Shown piece after piece: positions 16,306 to 37,510 of a DNA stretch of 46,409 bases. The notes beneath the pieces were generated by a model. That model was not told where the DNA came from, did not search any database, and saw only the letters and a list, made by a program, of their open reading frames with translations. Both the position numbers and the translations under genes were made by a program. The first letter of the stretch is position 1; every line of letters begins with the position of its first letter. Source of the stretch: an uncultured archaeon (GTDB taxonomy: Archaea > Asgardarchaeota > Hermodarchaeia > Hermodarchaeales > Hermodarchaeaceae); contig CAYFXC010000013.1 in NCBI GenBank assembly GCA_964347045.1, forward strand, positions 1 to 46,409, given 5' to 3'.

Positions 16306-16776
16306 TTAATAACGACGTCCACGGTCGCGTCGATCGCCACGCCGATATCCGCCACCGCGCCCACCATAGCTTCGTCGACGATAGCGGGGTTGTTCGTGTT
16401 CTGCGGCGGACATGTCGTTTTCAGCATCAACTTCTTCAATAGGTTCTTCGGCTTCGCTGATTTCTCCGTATCGTCCTATGTTCAGGCGGAGGTGTCCTTG
16501 AAAAAGGCTTGTATAGCCCTTTTCTAAGCGGTAGGTTTTGTCAATTTCAACGGCTTCGATATTGTCGTCCCATAAGGAGAGAAAGACTGTGCCAGTGGTA
16601 TCACCTGCTGTTGCATCAACAACTCGATGAGTTTCGCCATCTCGGCGGGAAGAGACTTCGCGTTCTTCACCCTTCTCGATGACTTTGAAGGTGATATTCA
16701 AACTTTTCATAAAAGGTCGCAATTCTGCGACTGTAGCCTCAACAGGCTCTCGATCGTAGCTCATTTTCGGTACCAC
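16306..16776 (-). CDS. ssb: Single-OB-fold ssDNA-binding protein with RG-rich tail (SSB-1)
   Basis: GDTTGTVFLSLWD, GYTSLFQGHLRLNIGRYG (crenarchaeal SSB / hSSB1-type OB fold); acidic linker; tail ends DRGRRY. Confidence 0.9.
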   Translation of the reverse strand: MVPKMSYDREPVEATVAELRPFMKSLNITFKVIEKGEEREVSSRRDGETHRVVDATAGDTTGTVFLSLWDDNIEAVEIDKTYRLEKGYTSLFQGHLRLNIGRYGEISEAEEPIEEVDAENDMSAAEHEQPRYRRRSYGGRGGGYRRGDRRDRGRRY

Positions 16777-16896
16777 GTTGCTTCAATATTCAGGTTCCTT
16801 ACCAAATCTTTCCTCTAGTTCTGCCGCAATCTGAGGTAGCCACAAGAGAAATCGATTCAGAATGTTAGACCTGCTTCATTCTCCAAACCAATTCGG

Positions 16897-30224: not shown

Positions 30225-31118
30225 ATGGCAAGAGAACAATTGGAAGCGGTAACTGACCAGGTTTTTTTAGTGCATGGTGAAAACGAAGGTCGATTTCCCC
30301 GCGCTCACTCCTTCCTCATTGCAGCAGAGGAAACTGTGCTAATCGACACTGGATGTGGTATTTCTCGCCTACGGGAACTTAAACAAGAATTCGAAATTGA
30401 TTATATCATTAACTCACATACCCATCCCGATCATTCAGCAGGGAACTGGGTATTTCATGACCTCCGTATTTTCGTACCCCAAGAATCCTTCAGCACAAGC
30501 GGAAATCTCGTCGGGCTTTCAAAACGATTTGTTGGAAACGTGCTTGCCCCGATTTGGCGACAATTTGCCCAAACCCAAATGGAATTTCAAAACTGCCGTC
30601 CCACTCACAGTTTCAATGAGAACTCGGCGTTCCAATTCAGTGATTTAACACTTACTCCAATCTATACACCAGGCCACACTAGTGACCATTATTGTTTCTA
30701 CGATGAGAAGAATCGTATCCTTTTTTCTTTTGACTATGATCTTACACAATTTCCCTGGTATGGTCATCAAGAATCCAGTCTAACCGAATTCCGACAATCA
30801 ATCACCCGTTTGAAGAAACTGCCTTCAAAAAAGATTGTCACTTCCCACCGAGGGATTATCAGCTCAAAAATCAAATCTGAATGGAAACAATATTCACAGC
30901 ATCTTGACGAAAGAAATCAGCGGATTCTCAATCTCCTAGAATCACCAAAAACACTCGACCAGCTAGTTGAAGCCAAACCTATCTATCGAAAATTCCCGTA
31001 CCAAGAACCCCTTCTCCGGTACTGGGAACAAATAATGATTAAACTTCACTTAGCCGAACTTCAAGATACTGGTAAAATTTCCCAACAGGATAAAAAATAT
31101 CGTCATACAAAAAAGTGA
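30225..31118 (+). CDS. MBL-fold metallo-hydrolase with C-terminal winged helix
   Basis: IDTG, SHTHPDH, TPGHT, D, SH. Confidence 0.9.
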   Translation: MAREQLEAVTDQVFLVHGENEGRFPRAHSFLIAAEETVLIDTGCGISRLRELKQEFEIDYIINSHTHPDHSAGNWVFHDLRIFVPQESFSTSGNLVGLSKRFVGNVLAPIWRQFAQTQMEFQNCRPTHSFNENSAFQFSDLTLTPIYTPGHTSDHYCFYDEKNRILFSFDYDLTQFPWYGHQESSLTEFRQSITRLKKLPSKKIVTSHRGIISSKIKSEWKQYSQHLDERNQRILNLLESPKTLDQLVEAKPIYRKFPYQEPLLRYWEQIMIKLHLAELQDTGKISQQDKKYRHTKK

Positions 31119-31121
31119 TTT

Positions 31122-31144
31122 GAGGGGAGGTTAGATCTCCCCTC
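31122..31144. terminator. GC-rich hairpin between convergent genes
   Basis: GAGGGGAG-N7-CTCCCCTC. Confidence 0.55.
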
Positions 31145-31190
31145 CAATTGTGGCAAATCCAGAGATTTCCCATTCACCATTTAGCCAGTA

Positions 31191-31433
31191 TCATTTTGGT
31201 TCTATGACAAAGTCTGAACTCAGTGATATTGTTCCGTCCCAGCTTAGAAAAGCGAAGTCAAAGCCCACATAGGGTGAATCAACAGCGATTTTGGGAGTGG
31301 TTGCACAAGGATTAGCCTCAAGGAATTTCAAAGATTGATTAGTGTAAATTATACCTACAGGAAGAGCTACCATGGTAACAAAAAAAATTAACCCGATTCC
31401 GAGCCAGATGAGTTTTTTTGTTTCTTGGTTCAT
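31191..31433 (-). CDS. 80-aa single-pass membrane/secreted protein
   Basis: GGAGG SD before ATG; MNQETKK then a hydrophobic helix and a short polar domain. Confidence 0.65.
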   Translation of the reverse strand: MNQETKKLIWLGIGLIFFVTMVALPVGIIYTNQSLKFLEANPCATTPKIAVDSPYVGFDFAFLSWDGTISLSSDFVIEPK

Positions 31434-31441
31434 TTTCAAAT

Positions 31442-31501
31442 CCCTCCAATTGGTTACCCATTTTATGAAAGCAACACAGTTGTTTGGTGATTGAACTATT
31501 G
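31442..31501 (-). repeat. Fixed-spacing leader element, copy A
   Basis: Plus strand CCCTCCAATTG-N30-TTTGGTGA-N5-CTATTG; same blocks and spacing at 33544-33603. Confidence 0.75.
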
Positions 31502-31507
31502 AAGAAA

Positions 31508-31547
31508 TACATATCAATCGACGGGAGCTAGGATGTGCAAAAAATCG
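31508..31547 (-). promoter_or_regulatory. Conserved 40-bp upstream motif, copy 1
   Basis: CGATTTTTTGCACATCCTAGCTCCCGTCGATTGATATGTA; 33 of 41 aligned columns match 32701-32739. Confidence 0.7.
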
Positions 31548-31621
31548 TAGAAAGAACAAACTGAGAGATGAAATTTGCACTAAATGGTGTAAATCTCGGT
31601 TTTCCCAGCACTCTCCCAAAA

Positions 31622-32563
31622 TTATGGATTGAGTAAGGTGTCCAACTGATTTTGCCCCAACCCTGGGAATTTACGATGAGGGAACATGACCATGGAATGA
31701 ACAATCGTACTATATGACAACTCTTTGAGTTGAAAGTCAATATCCTCAACTCGATGGAGATTATTAACAGCAAAATCGAGCAGGAGCGTGGGTTCGCTAG
31801 TAAGCAGATACGACGTCCAATATTCAAGAGGATATTTCTGCTCAAGCCAGGAAACCAGTTTTTTGGGAGTAATTTTCTCCCCATCATAACGCATACGACA
31901 ACGAAATTCGATTTGATCAGCAGAGCTACGTAGCCATTCAAGCGTAAACCGTATCATGCTTGTGTTATGAAATTCGTGAAGCATCATACGCACACGTTTT
32001 GCAGACAGTTTCGTCTGACGAGCAATATCGACAACTGGCATGCGTGGATTTTGACGGAGACATCGTAAAACGTCAACTTGTGACCTTGATAACGCAAAAT
32101 CTAGCCCAATGGGTCTAACAAAAGAGCTAGTAGTGCCATGAGGGTGCATTTCAATACATTCGTGGATTTCAACATGGGAAACTCGGTCGAGCGCACGAAG
32201 AAACTGACCAAAATTTATCGTGCCCATCTTCCCGCGAACATCAGCTTCAATGTCATACTTTCCATTTGCTAAGCGAGAGACTAGCCGAACAACGGGACTC
32301 TTTCCAATATTGTTAATGAATGATTGAATGTCTTCTGATCCAAGTGTCGTAACCTCCGCAATTACTAGATGCGCACCAAGAAGTTCGGGATTCAACTCAA
32401 TGATGAATCGCTGAATCACGCCGGAGTCCTTGAGTTTTTCAATGCGACTTCGGACGGTTTTACTCGAGATTCCAATCTTTCGAGCTAGTACTCGATAGGA
32501 CTGACGACAATTACCCTCCAATTCGGCAATAATGCCTTTATCAACCATATCCACCGGTGACAC
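31622..32563 (-). CDS. Tandem (double HTH) Lrp/AsnC family transcriptional regulator
   Basis: D..II.EL..NCRQSY..LA..IGIS..TV..RI..L...GVI and a second HTH L..NPRMP..DIA..T.LS.KRVR. Confidence 0.88.
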   Translation of the reverse strand: MSPVDMVDKGIIAELEGNCRQSYRVLARKIGISSKTVRSRIEKLKDSGVIQRFIIELNPELLGAHLVIAEVTTLGSEDIQSFINNIGKSPVVRLVSRLANGKYDIEADVRGKMGTINFGQFLRALDRVSHVEIHECIEMHPHGTTSSFVRPIGLDFALSRSQVDVLRCLRQNPRMPVVDIARQTKLSAKRVRMMLHEFHNTSMIRFTLEWLRSSADQIEFRCRMRYDGEKITPKKLVSWLEQKYPLEYWTSYLLTSEPTLLLDFAVNNLHRVEDIDFQLKELSYSTIVHSMVMFPHRKFPGLGQNQLDTLLNP

Positions 32564-32700
32564 CGATTTTTCGATGTAGTCTTACATTACTGTATTAGAT
32601 GTATATATCGATTCGCTTTTGAACTACAACAACTCTACAGCCTTGAACTGGATTCTACACCACACTGTTCAAAAATCTGCTAAAAAGGGGTTACCAGCGT

Positions 32701-32739
32701 CGATTGTTGCACCCCTAGGCTCCCTTTGATTGATATGCA
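32701..32739 (+). promoter_or_regulatory. Conserved 40-bp upstream motif, copy 2
   Basis: CGATTGTTGCACCCCTAGGCTCCCTTTGATTGATATGCA. Confidence 0.7.
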
Positions 32740-32796
32740 ATGTCTCCTTTTAGTTAATTGTTCTTCGGAACTGTACTATTGGATGGTGGTGATAAA

Positions 32797-33063
32797 ATGG
32801 TAGCCAAAGATGTGGGACAGAATTCACAACAAATCGGCTTGGTCCCTCAAGAAAGAACCGAGCAATGCTCCTATCATTGGATGTATGAAACCGCACAGGA
32901 TCAGGATATCGAAGTTCAAGTGACAGCTGTCGGACAGGGACTATTCACAATTGATACTCTCTGGTATCGTACTCAAGTACGAACCTACGATTTACTCGAT
33001 ACGGTTGTTCGTTTCTGCCAAAATATGTATGGTCCGGGAAAACTCACAATTATCATGCAATAA
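32797..33063 (+). CDS. Small hypothetical protein (88 aa)
   Basis: GGTGGTGA SD before ATG; plausible alpha/beta composition. Confidence 0.6.
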   Translation: MVAKDVGQNSQQIGLVPQERTEQCSYHWMYETAQDQDIEVQVTAVGQGLFTIDTLWYRTQVRTYDLLDTVVRFCQNMYGPGKLTIIMQ

Positions 33064-33091
33064 TATCAAACTTCAGGCACACCAATTGATT

Positions 33092-33517
33092 TCATGCGTT
33101 CGGCGGTTTAAATTTAGTAAAAAACGCTTTACTAGGTTCCTCATCGATTTCACAGGAGGCAACCCAGATCCCCTCCTCATCGAAGAAATCTAGATTGAAG
33201 CCAGCCTTTTGAAGAGCAAGAAGATATTGGAAGAGCATTAGAATTTCCTCTAACGAGACGCGAAGCTGAGGTTGATCAGGTGATGAAAATTCGTTGGAGG
33301 TTAAATTGGCGTCTAGTCCCCAGATCTGCTCAGGAAGAGTTATCTCGATTTCCATTTTAATTAGTTGAGGTTCTTCTGGCTTGCGAACGAGGATGATTCG
33401 GATTTGATCCGTTTCATGAATGGTGATTGTCTTTTCAGACAACCCGTATTTAACAAAATCATCCACACGAAGTGAAAGTAATTGCCGGTATTCTTTGATC
33501 AAATCCGAATACTTCAC
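33092..33517 (-). CDS. Hypothetical protein, paralogue of 45860-46282
   Basis: MKYSD...IHETD..R...QL...L......YLL.L..AGF.L....EEG.W.A shared with the paralogue. Confidence 0.8.
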   Translation of the reverse strand: MKYSDLIKEYRQLLSLRVDDFVKYGLSEKTITIHETDQIRIILVRKPEEPQLIKMEIEITLPEQIWGLDANLTSNEFSSPDQPQLRVSLEEILMLFQYLLALQKAGFNLDFFDEEGIWVASCEIDEEPSKAFFTKFKPPNA

Positions 33518-33543
33518 CGCATCTTAGCTCCTCGTTGGGTCAA

Positions 33544-33603
33544 CCCTCCAATTGTGTTGGCAATAAGCTTGGATGACCATCGACTTTGGTGACATTTCTA
33601 TTG
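33544..33603 (-). repeat. Fixed-spacing leader element, copy B
   Basis: CCCTCCAATTG-N30-TTTGGTGA-N5-CTATTG with a different N30. Confidence 0.75.
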
Positions 33604-33723
33604 ACCGGTCCTAATGGGGTTCCGAAAGGGTCTGAAATTCATGAAAAATCGGCATATTGAGGACTTCTATTCCCAGAAAACGGCATCGCGAATATTTTTC
33701 GTAAGAAGTCAAGAGAAGCAAGG

Positions 33724-33733: not shown

Positions 33734-33852
33734 TGGTATCGGGTTGGCATGAGTATCAGCACCGAAATGTGAATTGTGTTTGGGCTAGATTCCAGGTATG
33801 GTTGAGTCCCGAGTTACGTTCTCTTTTTGGAAGCCTGATTTGAGATAGATAC

Positions 33853-34368
33853 GTGGTACCGAAAATGAGCTATGATAGAGAGCCTGTTGAGGCAACAGTC
33901 GCAGACTTGCGACCTAGTATGAAAAGTTTGAACATCACCTTCAAAGTCATCGAGAAGGGCGAAGAACGCGAAGTCACCTCACGTCGCGATGGCGAAACCC
34001 ACCGAGTATTAGATGCGGTGGCTGGTGACTCCACTGGTACAATCGTTTTATCCCTTTGGGACGATATGATTGATACGGTCGAAACTGACAAGAGCTACCG
34101 TTTAGAAAATGGTTACACCAGCCTGTTCCAAGGCCATCTCCGATTGAACATCGGACGCTATGGTGAACTGAAAGACGCAGACAGTGAAATCGACGAAGTC
34201 GACATGGACAACGATCTTTCTGCTGCCGAACATGAACGTCCTCCCCGTCGATCCTATGGTGGATATGGCGGTGGGCGCAGCTATGGTGGCGGTGGACATC
34301 GTGGTGGCGGTTATCGTCGCGGTGGTGGCGGTTCACGCCGTGGAAGCCGAGATCGAGGTCGCTACTAA
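33853..34368 (+). CDS. ssb: Single-OB-fold SSB with long RGG/YGG tail (SSB-2)
   Basis: OB fold highly similar to SSB-1; tail RRSYGGYGGGRSYGGGGHRGGGYRRGGGG...DRGRY. Confidence 0.9.
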   Translation: MVPKMSYDREPVEATVADLRPSMKSLNITFKVIEKGEEREVTSRRDGETHRVLDAVAGDSTGTIVLSLWDDMIDTVETDKSYRLENGYTSLFQGHLRLNIGRYGELKDADSEIDEVDMDNDLSAAEHERPPRRSYGGYGGGRSYGGGGHRGGGYRRGGGGSRRGSRDRGRY

Positions 34369-36559: not shown

Positions 36560-37249
36560 CTATAAGAGATTGAACCAACAGGTATCAGGTGCCTCTGGGG
36601 GTAGCACCCCAATCATCTTCAAAAAAGCGACATCCATGTCGCTATTCCACTCGCCAAAAATGTCTACAAAGACTAATTTTAACGTATGCGGACCAGGTCC
36701 AATGATTGCTTTGAGTTCACCGGCTCGAAAAACAGTTCCAACCCGATAGAAATACACAGGCCAGCCTTCATCACCTGAATGTGGAATATAGACAACGGGT
36801 GAAATTCGAAGGTCCACCTCATATGGGGTCTCAGTATCCCAATCGATAATGATTTTTAGCTCAATGCTTTCCTGAACTTCCTTGGCGGTTTTCTGTGTTA
36901 ATGGATTACCAGCGTAATCCCGATCGAGACCCATTCCGAAGCCGATTACTATTTCGTCGTCACCATTATAATCCGGCAATTCAGGATCCCAGGGAACCCC
37001 AGCCTGAAGGTCATCGAATGGATCACACCACCAATACATTATGAGACGACTGGTTTCAGGATCCCACGAGTCGAGCATGGTTTGCCATGGTGCTGAGTGC
37101 CAATTAGATGGAAAGTTTATACCAAAACTAGGAATTCGGATGAATGAATTGAGTTCTCCGTGGCTGGCAACGGCCAGGGGGACAAAGGCGAAGCCAATGA
37201 TTGGGACGAAAAGTAGAATCACTAGTACGATCTTTGTTTTATTTCTCAT
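36560..37249 (-). CDS. Secreted hypothetical protein
   Basis: GGAGG SD, MRNKTK plus hydrophobic signal; acidic W/P-rich beta domain. Confidence 0.75.
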   Translation of the reverse strand: MRNKTKIVLVILLFVPIIGFAFVPLAVASHGELNSFIRIPSFGINFPSNWHSAPWQTMLDSWDPETSRLIMYWWCDPFDDLQAGVPWDPELPDYNGDDEIVIGFGMGLDRDYAGNPLTQKTAKEVQESIELKIIIDWDTETPYEVDLRISPVVYIPHSGDEGWPVYFYRVGTVFRAGELKAIIGPGPHTLKLVFVDIFGEWNSDMDVAFLKMIGVLPPEAPDTCWFNLL

Positions 37250-37510
37250 TGTTTGTTTTTCCCTCCAACTTGGGCGTTGAGTGTCCGACAACGACCAGTG
37301 AAGCAGTCGGTTTAATTCCGTAATCGCTTTTATAATAACGGGTATTGTGGTGGTAACATACGAGTCGAAAATTAGATAAAAAGAGACAAAAGCGTACATC
37401 TTGTTTTCTCAAAAAGGCGCTTTTCACTAGCAAATTTAAAGAAGAGAAACTTAAATCGCAGCATCAGAAGGAAGGAGCTCCGCTATTATCGATAAGGAGC
37501 AAACGGAACC

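Follow-up and report, generated by a model that had tools for sequence, protein, structure and literature searches.

A repeated 11-mer beside a winged-helix regulator

We analysed a 46,409-nt stretch of DNA from an uncultured Hermodarchaeaceae archaeon of the Asgardarchaeota (contig CAYFXC010000013.1 of assembly GCA_964347045.1, positions 1 to 46,409), referred to here as the window. Between an MBL-fold gene and a gene for an SSB-type OB-fold protein, the window carries a transcriptional regulator flanked by three small orphan genes, which encode proteins of 80, 88 and 141 amino acids (aa; Table 1). An earlier note on this DNA had reported the 11-mer CCCTCCAATTG at three places around the regulator, had described it as part of a fixed scaffold with a variable 30-nt core (N30), and had offered three explanations: a folded leader RNA that hides the Shine-Dalgarno (SD) sequence, a small RNA with a variable core, or the boundaries of gene cassettes. 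All three copies are present in the same orientation on the + strand, at 31140, 31442 and 33544 (copies 1, 2 and 3). With up to one mismatch allowed, there are five matches in the window against 1.1 expected, and none of 100 shuffles reached five. The neighbouring small genes lie on the − strand, so the meaningful reading of the 11-mer is CAATTGGAGGG; its core in fuller form is (A)CACAATTGGAGGGG.

The window's own genome (G000; relatives are numbered from G001 upwards) is a 2.58 Mb assembly of 83 contigs that is 89% complete, and it contains eight exact copies of CAATTGGAGGG. Two of these lie centrally in a conserved intergenic hairpin.

A conserved, predicted hairpin RNA with an invariant loop

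A covariance model was built from eight copies of the hairpin. Metagenome contigs supplied 13 further copies, and 42 copies were aligned. The model finds the hairpin in 19 of 19 genomes of the family, usually as two strong copies and up to two weaker paralogues. Elsewhere in the phylum, one of 132 genomes has a match, which is marginal (E = 2e-4). Judged by these genomes, the hairpin is specific to this Hermodarchaeota family. In G000, the four copies (Table 1; loci indexed also as L074 and L085) are all outside the window, on other contigs.

The stem is strongly supported: 92.9% of its cells are paired across the 42 copies, compared with 43–59% when the partners are slid against each other, and double-sided changes are seen in 21 of the 30 pairs (none of 500 shuffles reached the observed values). 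The loop, of ~45 nt, is C/U-rich, contains CCCCUCCAAUUGUGU and is identical in 41 of the 42 copies. One copy in G012 (L082, G012:C1:20008-20130) has a changed seed, AAUUUAGUCC in place of AAUUGUGUCC.

The transcribed strand is fixed by three observations. Firstly, a conserved B recognition element (BRE)/TATA element, of two types, ends 20–24 nt before the first base of the stem, and T-rich tracts follow the last (29 copies). Secondly, the stems contain 73 G-U pairs against 25 A-C pairs. Thirdly, the copy on contig C5 sits between convergent open reading frames (ORFs), so its TATA can serve nothing else. The hairpin is thus predicted to be an independent transcription unit with its own promoter, and we refer to it as a small RNA (sRNA).

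Searches of known families gave no relatives. Neither the sRNA loci nor the loci of the complementary boxes described below have a match in Rfam (E ≤ 1 at the locus), and ARAGORN called no tRNA in any of them. A Y RNA, which combines a long stem with a pyrimidine-rich loop, was considered and rejected, as the genome has no Ro60/TROVE gene. A 28-mer from the loop is absent from viral contigs.

The consensus structure also contains a 4-bp helix (helix 2; 96.7% paired and covarying) with three unpaired columns after each strand, which is a canonical bulge-helix-bulge (BHB). Cutting at this motif, as the tRNA-splicing endonuclease could do, is predicted to release a piece of 86 nt from the C5 copy and 81 nt from the C8 copy, perhaps as a ring; for a C5-type copy, the predicted ring junction links a 3′ end of ...CGCCAU to a 5′ AGAUC.... 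Genes for splicing and ligation are present in G000, with two of EndA type (PF01974; on contigs C7 and C1) and one RtcB (PF01139).

The loop is the exact complement of the motif

On the predicted strand the loop reads ...CUCUCCCCUCCAAUUGUGUCC..., which is the exact complement of the motif as read in the sense of the neighbouring genes. The perfect complement extends over 17 nt at copy 1, 14 nt at copy 3 and 11 nt at copy 2, and reaches 20 nt at a site in G003. These three copies are the only perfect loop-complement sites of at least 11 nt in the window. Within the loop complement, only the CACAATTGGAGG part is over-represented in G000 outside the sRNA genes. For the diverged-loop paralogues, no enriched complementary sites were found.

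The motif might have been an extended SD sequence. However, the 16S rRNA 3′ end of the genus mates is the standard GGAUCACCUCCU, which cannot pair with the CACAAUU part, and this idea was dropped. The 16S loci contain no complement of at least 9 nt to the sRNA loop. One genus mate has an unusual 16S gene (L030, G006:C71:619-4212), which spans 3.6 kb for 1478 model positions, so that introns or large insertions must be present; near its 3′ end there is, in addition, a ~30-nt insertion that is lacking in the sister-genus copy (L029).

Distribution and classes of the boxes

A pattern search across related genomes shows that the motif recurs family-wide. Each of the 19 family genomes, which represent two genera, contains 2–8 copies of CAATTGGAGGG, compared with 0–3 (usually 0) of the reversed control; outside the family, the motif is missing from most genomes of the phylum. 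The longer 13-mer CACAATTGGAGGG gave 62 matches in the family compared with two for the control, and one match in 22 outgroup genomes. About 26 of the 13-mer sites lie outside sRNA genes, all of them within 11 genomes of the window's genus.

Wherever the flanking genes are readable, the boxes run in the sense of those genes; three of the ~26 13-mer sites escaped this classification. The intergenic sites form five recurring classes (S, X, Y, T and R; Table 1), some members of which match the loop complement over only 11–12 nt and are hence absent from the 13-mer matches. Boxes of classes S, X and R recur at orthologous places in several species. The box-bearing genes have no Pfam family and are all orphans, with the exception of the radical-SAM gene downstream of the class R boxes.

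Several of these loci have features of their own. The class S genes encode Lys/Arg-rich orphan proteins without a Pfam match (in G000, C2:116982-117122 and C13:56863-57006, both on the − strand; L001 and L007), in which the box is the ribosome-binding site; in at least six species they adjoin paralogues of the window's regulator. The radical-SAM gene (L054:1590-2747, with orthologues in G002, G005 and G009) has its conserved box ~60 nt upstream of the TATA, right behind the terminator of the preceding gene, and likewise adjoins a regulator paralogue. A site in G012 (L160, G012:C37:75251) that matches the variant sRNA loop of that genome over 16 nt is in a hairpin with a T-run right after a 516-codon ORF. 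Both arms of a terminator-like hairpin at C2:26063-26100 of G000 carry AATTGGAGGG, which puts the motif on both strands.

Table 1. Features at the regulator locus, sRNA genes of G000 and classes of boxes. Positions without a contig name are those of the window; C2, C5, C8, C12, C13 and C30 are contigs of G000.
Feature	Position	Strand	Description
MBL-fold gene	30225-31118	+
Hairpin and T6 run	31109-31144	−	Arms 31137-31144 and 31122-31129; T6 at 31109-31114
Box T (copy 1)	31136-31152	−	Reads CACAATTGGAGGGGAGA; 17-nt perfect complement of the sRNA loop; 3′ untranslated region (UTR) of the 80-aa gene
80-aa orphan gene	31191-31433	−	Membrane or secreted protein; fast-evolving
Copy 2, CAATTGGAGGG	31442-31452	−	SD of the 80-aa gene; ATG at 31433, 8 nt downstream
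Blocks 2 and 3 of copy 2	31483-31501	−	CAATAG-N5-TCACCAAA; close to the promoter or at the transcription start of the 80-aa gene
P1 of the 80-aa gene	31510-31531	−	CTAGCTCCCGTCGATTGATATG; BRE/TATA-like, possibly also operator; conserved in four species
Regulator, 313 aa	31622-32563	−	Two winged-helix HTH domains: AsnC-type, residues 5-51; MarR-like, residues 158-205
P1 of the 88-aa gene	32715-32737	+	P1 pattern match, divergent gene
88-aa orphan gene	32797-33063	+	Divergent; degenerate box ATTGGATGG in the leader, where G008 has CACAATTGGATGG
141-aa orphan gene	33092-33517	−	GTG start; own SD GAGGAG at 33528-33533, 10 nt before the GTG
Box Y (copy 3)	33544-33557	−	Reads ACACAATTGGAGGG; 14-nt perfect complement of the sRNA loop; in the 5′ leader of the 141-aa mRNA, predicted at about +12 to +25
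Blocks 2 and 3 of copy 3	33585-33606	−	GGTCAATAGAAATG-TCACCAAA; covers the TATA-like P1 of the 141-aa gene plus the bases that directly follow
P1 of the 141-aa gene	33593-33606	−	Includes the CTATTG block of the earlier note
SSB-type OB-fold gene	from 33853	+
Looser motif variant, AAGTTGGAGGG	37261-37271	−	SD of the secreted 229-aa orphan whose ATG is at 37249
sRNA gene, invariant loop	C8:104617-104739	+
sRNA gene, invariant loop	C5:39470-39597	−
sRNA paralogue, diverged loop	C5:64881-65003	−
sRNA paralogue, diverged loop	C12:15787-15909	+
Class S	C2:117144, C13:57028		Box is the SD of 46-47-aa basic orphan proteins; at least five other species
Class X	C30:12028, C13:47238		Leader of secreted orphans, then a short GGGG/CCCC hairpin and a second SD
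Class Y	Copy 3		Leader of the 141-aa family; seven species
Class T	Copy 1		Before a hairpin and T-run; four species (the G003 site has the 20-nt match); similar sites in G010 and G012
Class R			Behind a terminator and ahead of the TATA of a radical-SAM gene; four species

The three copies in the window are three different things

Copy 1 (box T) lies 40 nt past the end of the 80-aa ORF, and its G-rich bases make up the 5′ arm of the hairpin that precedes the T6 run (minimum free energy −17 kcal/mol, z = −1.8 relative to shuffles). This region overlaps the stop codon (TGA, 31116-31118) of the convergent MBL-fold gene, and the hairpin and T6 run likely serve the 80-aa mRNA as its terminator or 3′-end structure. 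G001, G003 and G004 have retained the hairpin with its T-run, and ACAATTGGAGGGGA within box T is invariant across the four species, in which the 80-aa protein is only 36–39% identical.

Copy 2 is the SD site of the same gene. Only GGAGGGAT is kept in the orthologues, and the CAATT part is different in all three; therefore, the 11-nt match of copy 2 to the loop is specific to this species. Copy 2 is a mere SD that happens to reach 11 nt here. The looser variant that the earlier note saw before the secreted gene is also an SD, that of the 229-aa secreted orphan, and not a general element; 10 pairs with the sRNA loop are possible there, one of them G-U, which is weak evidence.

Copy 3 (box Y) belongs to the 141-aa gene, in whose leader it precedes the real SD by ~20 nt. 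It is kept in seven species whilst its flanks drift; in the orthologues the complement reaches 15 nt and that 15-mer is fixed. In G003 and G006 there is an A-to-G change, which would keep the pairing as a G-U wobble. The 141-aa gene has a paralogue on contig C30, beside another regulator; a related-locus search with the 141-aa protein as query gave no matches. The three copies are therefore a 3′-UTR box, an SD and a leader box, respectively.

The 80-aa gene is bracketed by two copies 302 bp apart, as the earlier note had observed. The note also suggested looking for strains without this unit, and one is available: the unit is found in G001, G003 and G004 as well as G000, whilst the sister species G008 lacks it entirely, and there the convergent MBL-fold and regulator genes meet at a different hairpin, with no box at the junction. 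The motif copies are not at the borders of the segment that is missing in G008, so its presence or absence is an ordinary indel and not a cassette site.

The shared blocks are promoter, spacer and box in series

Copies 2 and 3 have further blocks at identical offsets, TTTGGTGA (31483-31490 and 33585-33592) and CTATTG (31496-31501 and 33598-33603), exactly as described in the earlier note. When the two copies are aligned at the anchor, there are identity runs of 8 and 7, and the shared blocks read TCAATAG and TCACCAAA on the − strand. When 70-mers that precede GGAGG in G000 were paired at random 200,000 times, only 4 pairs had such runs (8 and at least 6 nt). The N30s themselves are unrelated, the overall identity of the two 70-mers being ordinary (23/70). 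A further shared feature, ATGGT...TTGCCA, is common to copies 1 and 3 but only at unequal spacing.

In the relatives, the distance between TCACCAAA and the box is 29–37 nt. The N30 is a spacer between a promoter element and the box, conserved neither in sequence nor in length. At copy 2, TCACCAAAC is kept in G003 and G004 and deleted in G001, and CAATAG is not kept. In the promoter of the 141-aa gene, GTCAATAGAAA is invariant in six of seven species. What looked like a scaffold is promoter, spacer and box in series, with the exact N30 peculiar to this genome.

The promoter component, P1 (approximately TAG-CyCC-sGTC-rATwGAwATG), is found once for each small gene around the regulator and is conserved in the orthologous promoters. 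Relative to the blocks, it sits 9 nt further upstream in the 80-aa promoter than in the 141-aa promoter. The degenerate pattern has four occurrences in G000, of which three are at this locus, and P1 is probably the control layer of the regulator itself. The three small genes thus resemble a local regulon of three promoters with a candidate operator.

The earlier note placed this regulator in the Lrp/AsnC family. Its first domain bears this out, with an HTH_AsnC-type match at residues 5-45 (E = 4e-18), but the remainder does not: residues 158-205 are a second winged helix-turn-helix (wHTH), and there is no hit to RAM (AsnC_trans_reg) at E ≤ 0.01. On its domain matches it is a tandem double-wHTH protein, and 'Lrp/AsnC-like HTH' is the most that can be said of it. 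At the other end of the locus, the start of the SSB-type gene (33851-33900) is 94% identical over 50 nt to the start of another SSB-type gene at 16729-16778, although the two paralogues are far apart in the window.

A trans-acting sRNA as the probable partner of the boxes

From the enrichment of the motif, its conservation at orthologous places and its exact complementarity to the loop, we somewhat favour the reading that it is an mRNA-sense box, (A)CACAAUUGGAGGGG, which serves as the docking site for a lineage-specific, trans-acting and possibly circular sRNA, and is not a repeat element. On this reading, the effect of pairing would depend on where the box is. Where the box is the SD, as in the mRNAs of the 46-47-aa basic orphans and weakly in that of the 80-aa gene, the sRNA would mask the ribosome-binding site. 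On the 141-aa leader, the duplex would form a short way ahead of the real SD. At the 3′ end of the 80-aa mRNA, the single-stranded CACAAUU would have to be the entry point, from which the sRNA would displace the 3′ arm of the terminator hairpin; since that arm itself repeats sRNA sequence, the stability of the 3′ end could change.

Several observations count against such a pairing. The boxes account for only 14–17 nt of the 45-nt invariant loop, which leaves two-thirds of it unexplained, and as the loop does not vary there is no compensatory co-variation between loop and box to draw on. The variant loop in G012 has a single better site (16 instead of 14 nt), and the extra bases there include a stop codon. 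A genome-wide ranking by duplex energy was uninformative, since any G-rich site scores well and the reversed-loop control is similar. Copy 2 is not conserved as a box. The class R boxes, between a terminator and the next TATA, would be transcribed only if termination were leaky, and their position suits a DNA-binding activator. Lastly, the sister genus has the sRNA, but no 13-mer box was found there outside the sRNA genes; the ancestral role of the sRNA may have been different.

We can alternatively suppose that there is no partner in trans. The boxes would then have been inherited from paralogous leaders and terminators, as a strong SD with its context, and the match to the loop would be historical, for example if the antisense strand of one such leader gave rise to the sRNA. 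The box genes do come from a small number of paralogous orphan families that accompany the regulators, several of these genes use GGAGG as their SD, and copy 2 shows that the 11-mer can arise from an SD in one species. Nevertheless, simple inheritance would leave unexplained why the 14–15-nt boxes are invariant whilst the leader, the coding sequence and the hairpin loop drift, why CACAAUU is retained without a role in pairing to the 16S tail, and why the same box is found in non-homologous contexts (SD, upstream of an SD, 3′ UTR and intergenic). The sRNA also appears to be older than the boxes, because it is in both genera and the boxes are seen in only one. We consider this explanation rather unlikely.

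The box could also be a DNA site for a protein, either a common factor or one of the double-wHTH regulators, in which case its presence in the sRNA gene would reflect either an additional, independent constraint or one more site bound by that factor. G000 has 17 paralogues of the regulator, and every box locus in this genome is within 2.5 kb of one of them; such zones around the 17 genes cover ~4% of the genome. The class R boxes precede a TATA by ~60 nt, which is where an activator would typically bind, and CAATTG is palindromic. However, the box-linked regulators are not one clade: they are scattered over the family tree and only ~30% identical to each other, yet the box beside them is invariant, so that one common trans factor fits better than private operators. 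On this ground, the specific idea that the box is the operator of the adjacent regulator was rejected. In addition, the other 9 of the 17 paralogues have no box within 2.5 kb; many of the boxes overlap an SD or follow a stop codon, and the readable ones are all on the sense strand; in the sRNA gene, the site is mid-way in the invariant loop, at about +75, and not in the promoter; and P1, with its concentration at this locus, is a better operator candidate. A DNA site is, on balance, quite improbable.

The mechanisms proposed in the earlier note are very improbable, notwithstanding that the 80-aa unit is present in four species and absent from G008 and that two copies share an exact spacing: the leaders fold at the level of shuffled sequences (z = −0.16 and +0.06) and box Y is not the SD of the 141-aa gene, which argues against an SD-sequestering leader; the N30s, as non-conserved spacers with no second genomic copy and no exact match in viral contigs, do not suit a variable small RNA core, and no small transcript over scaffold and N30 was seen; and for cassettes, the upstream copy is inside the unit at the SD, the empty site in G008 keeps no box, the unit was not seen at other loci with the same flanking boxes, and, as the note itself had remarked, no recombinase or nuclease is adjacent (none of nine neighbouring genes scanned has such a domain). 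The note's more general claim, of a functional and family-wide element tied to RNA-level control near the SD, is nonetheless supported.

Returning to the trans-acting sRNA, a fuller model can be put forward tentatively, with appreciably more doubt than the pairing itself. The tRNA-splicing endonuclease could release the 81–86-nt piece from the BHB stem, perhaps as a ring. This splicing-cut Asgard sRNA would then control a private regulon of fast-evolving orphan genes that accompany the expanded double-wHTH family, blocking or modulating ribosomes through the 14–17-nt leader boxes; in 3′ UTRs it would open the terminator hairpins by toehold displacement, as their 3′ arm has the sequence of the sRNA seed.

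Relationship to known systems

The closest parallels are the base-pairing sRNAs with C-rich loops of the Bacillota, of the RsaE/RoxS type, and, among the archaea, sRNA41 of Methanosarcina mazei, which pairs with ribosome-binding sites. The Hermodarchaeota sRNA is similar to these in being a stand-alone gene with its own predicted promoter, in having an invariant, unpaired C-rich stretch with a CCUCC-like sequence, and in its complementarity to the G-rich SD regions of several mRNAs, where specificity would come from the bases that flank the SD. It differs in having no sequence or Rfam relationship to them, in presenting its seed in a single, very large (~45 nt) terminal loop on a long stem with a BHB motif, in having putative targets that include terminator hairpins in 3′ UTRs and sites upstream of the real SD, and in its lineage, the Asgard archaea.

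BHB stems that are cut by the archaeal splicing endonuclease and closed by RtcB are found in tRNA introns, rRNA processing stems, and circular C/D-box and signal recognition particle (SRP) RNAs. The Hermodarchaeota sRNA has the same canonical geometry, with a 4-bp helix and 3-nt bulges, in a genome with EndA-type and RtcB genes. Unlike these RNAs it is a stand-alone gene rather than an intron or rRNA spacer, and the predicted piece would be an antisense regulator.

There is also a superficial resemblance to integron attC sites and other cassette-array repeats, in that a short repeat in one orientation lies between small, unrelated orphan genes, one unit of which is variably present. In contrast to those repeats, the copies here are not at the borders of units, there is neither a folded recombination site nor a recombinase nearby, the empty site has no box, and the boxes are inside leaders and 3′ UTRs in the sense of the mRNA.

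Our literature searches found no paper that describes a regulatory sRNA, or the targets of one, from the Asgard archaea. What emerges here is a testable pair, an RNA with a 15-nt seed and a small set of conserved boxes, each in a named leader or 3′ UTR. A puzzling 'repeat' has also been resolved into ordinary parts (promoter element, spacer and box), which guards against over-reading such arrangements as mobile cassettes. The Asgard archaea are the closest known relatives of eukaryotes and, if the model above is true, an sRNA made by tRNA-splicing enzymes would tie eukaryote-like RNA processing to antisense regulation.

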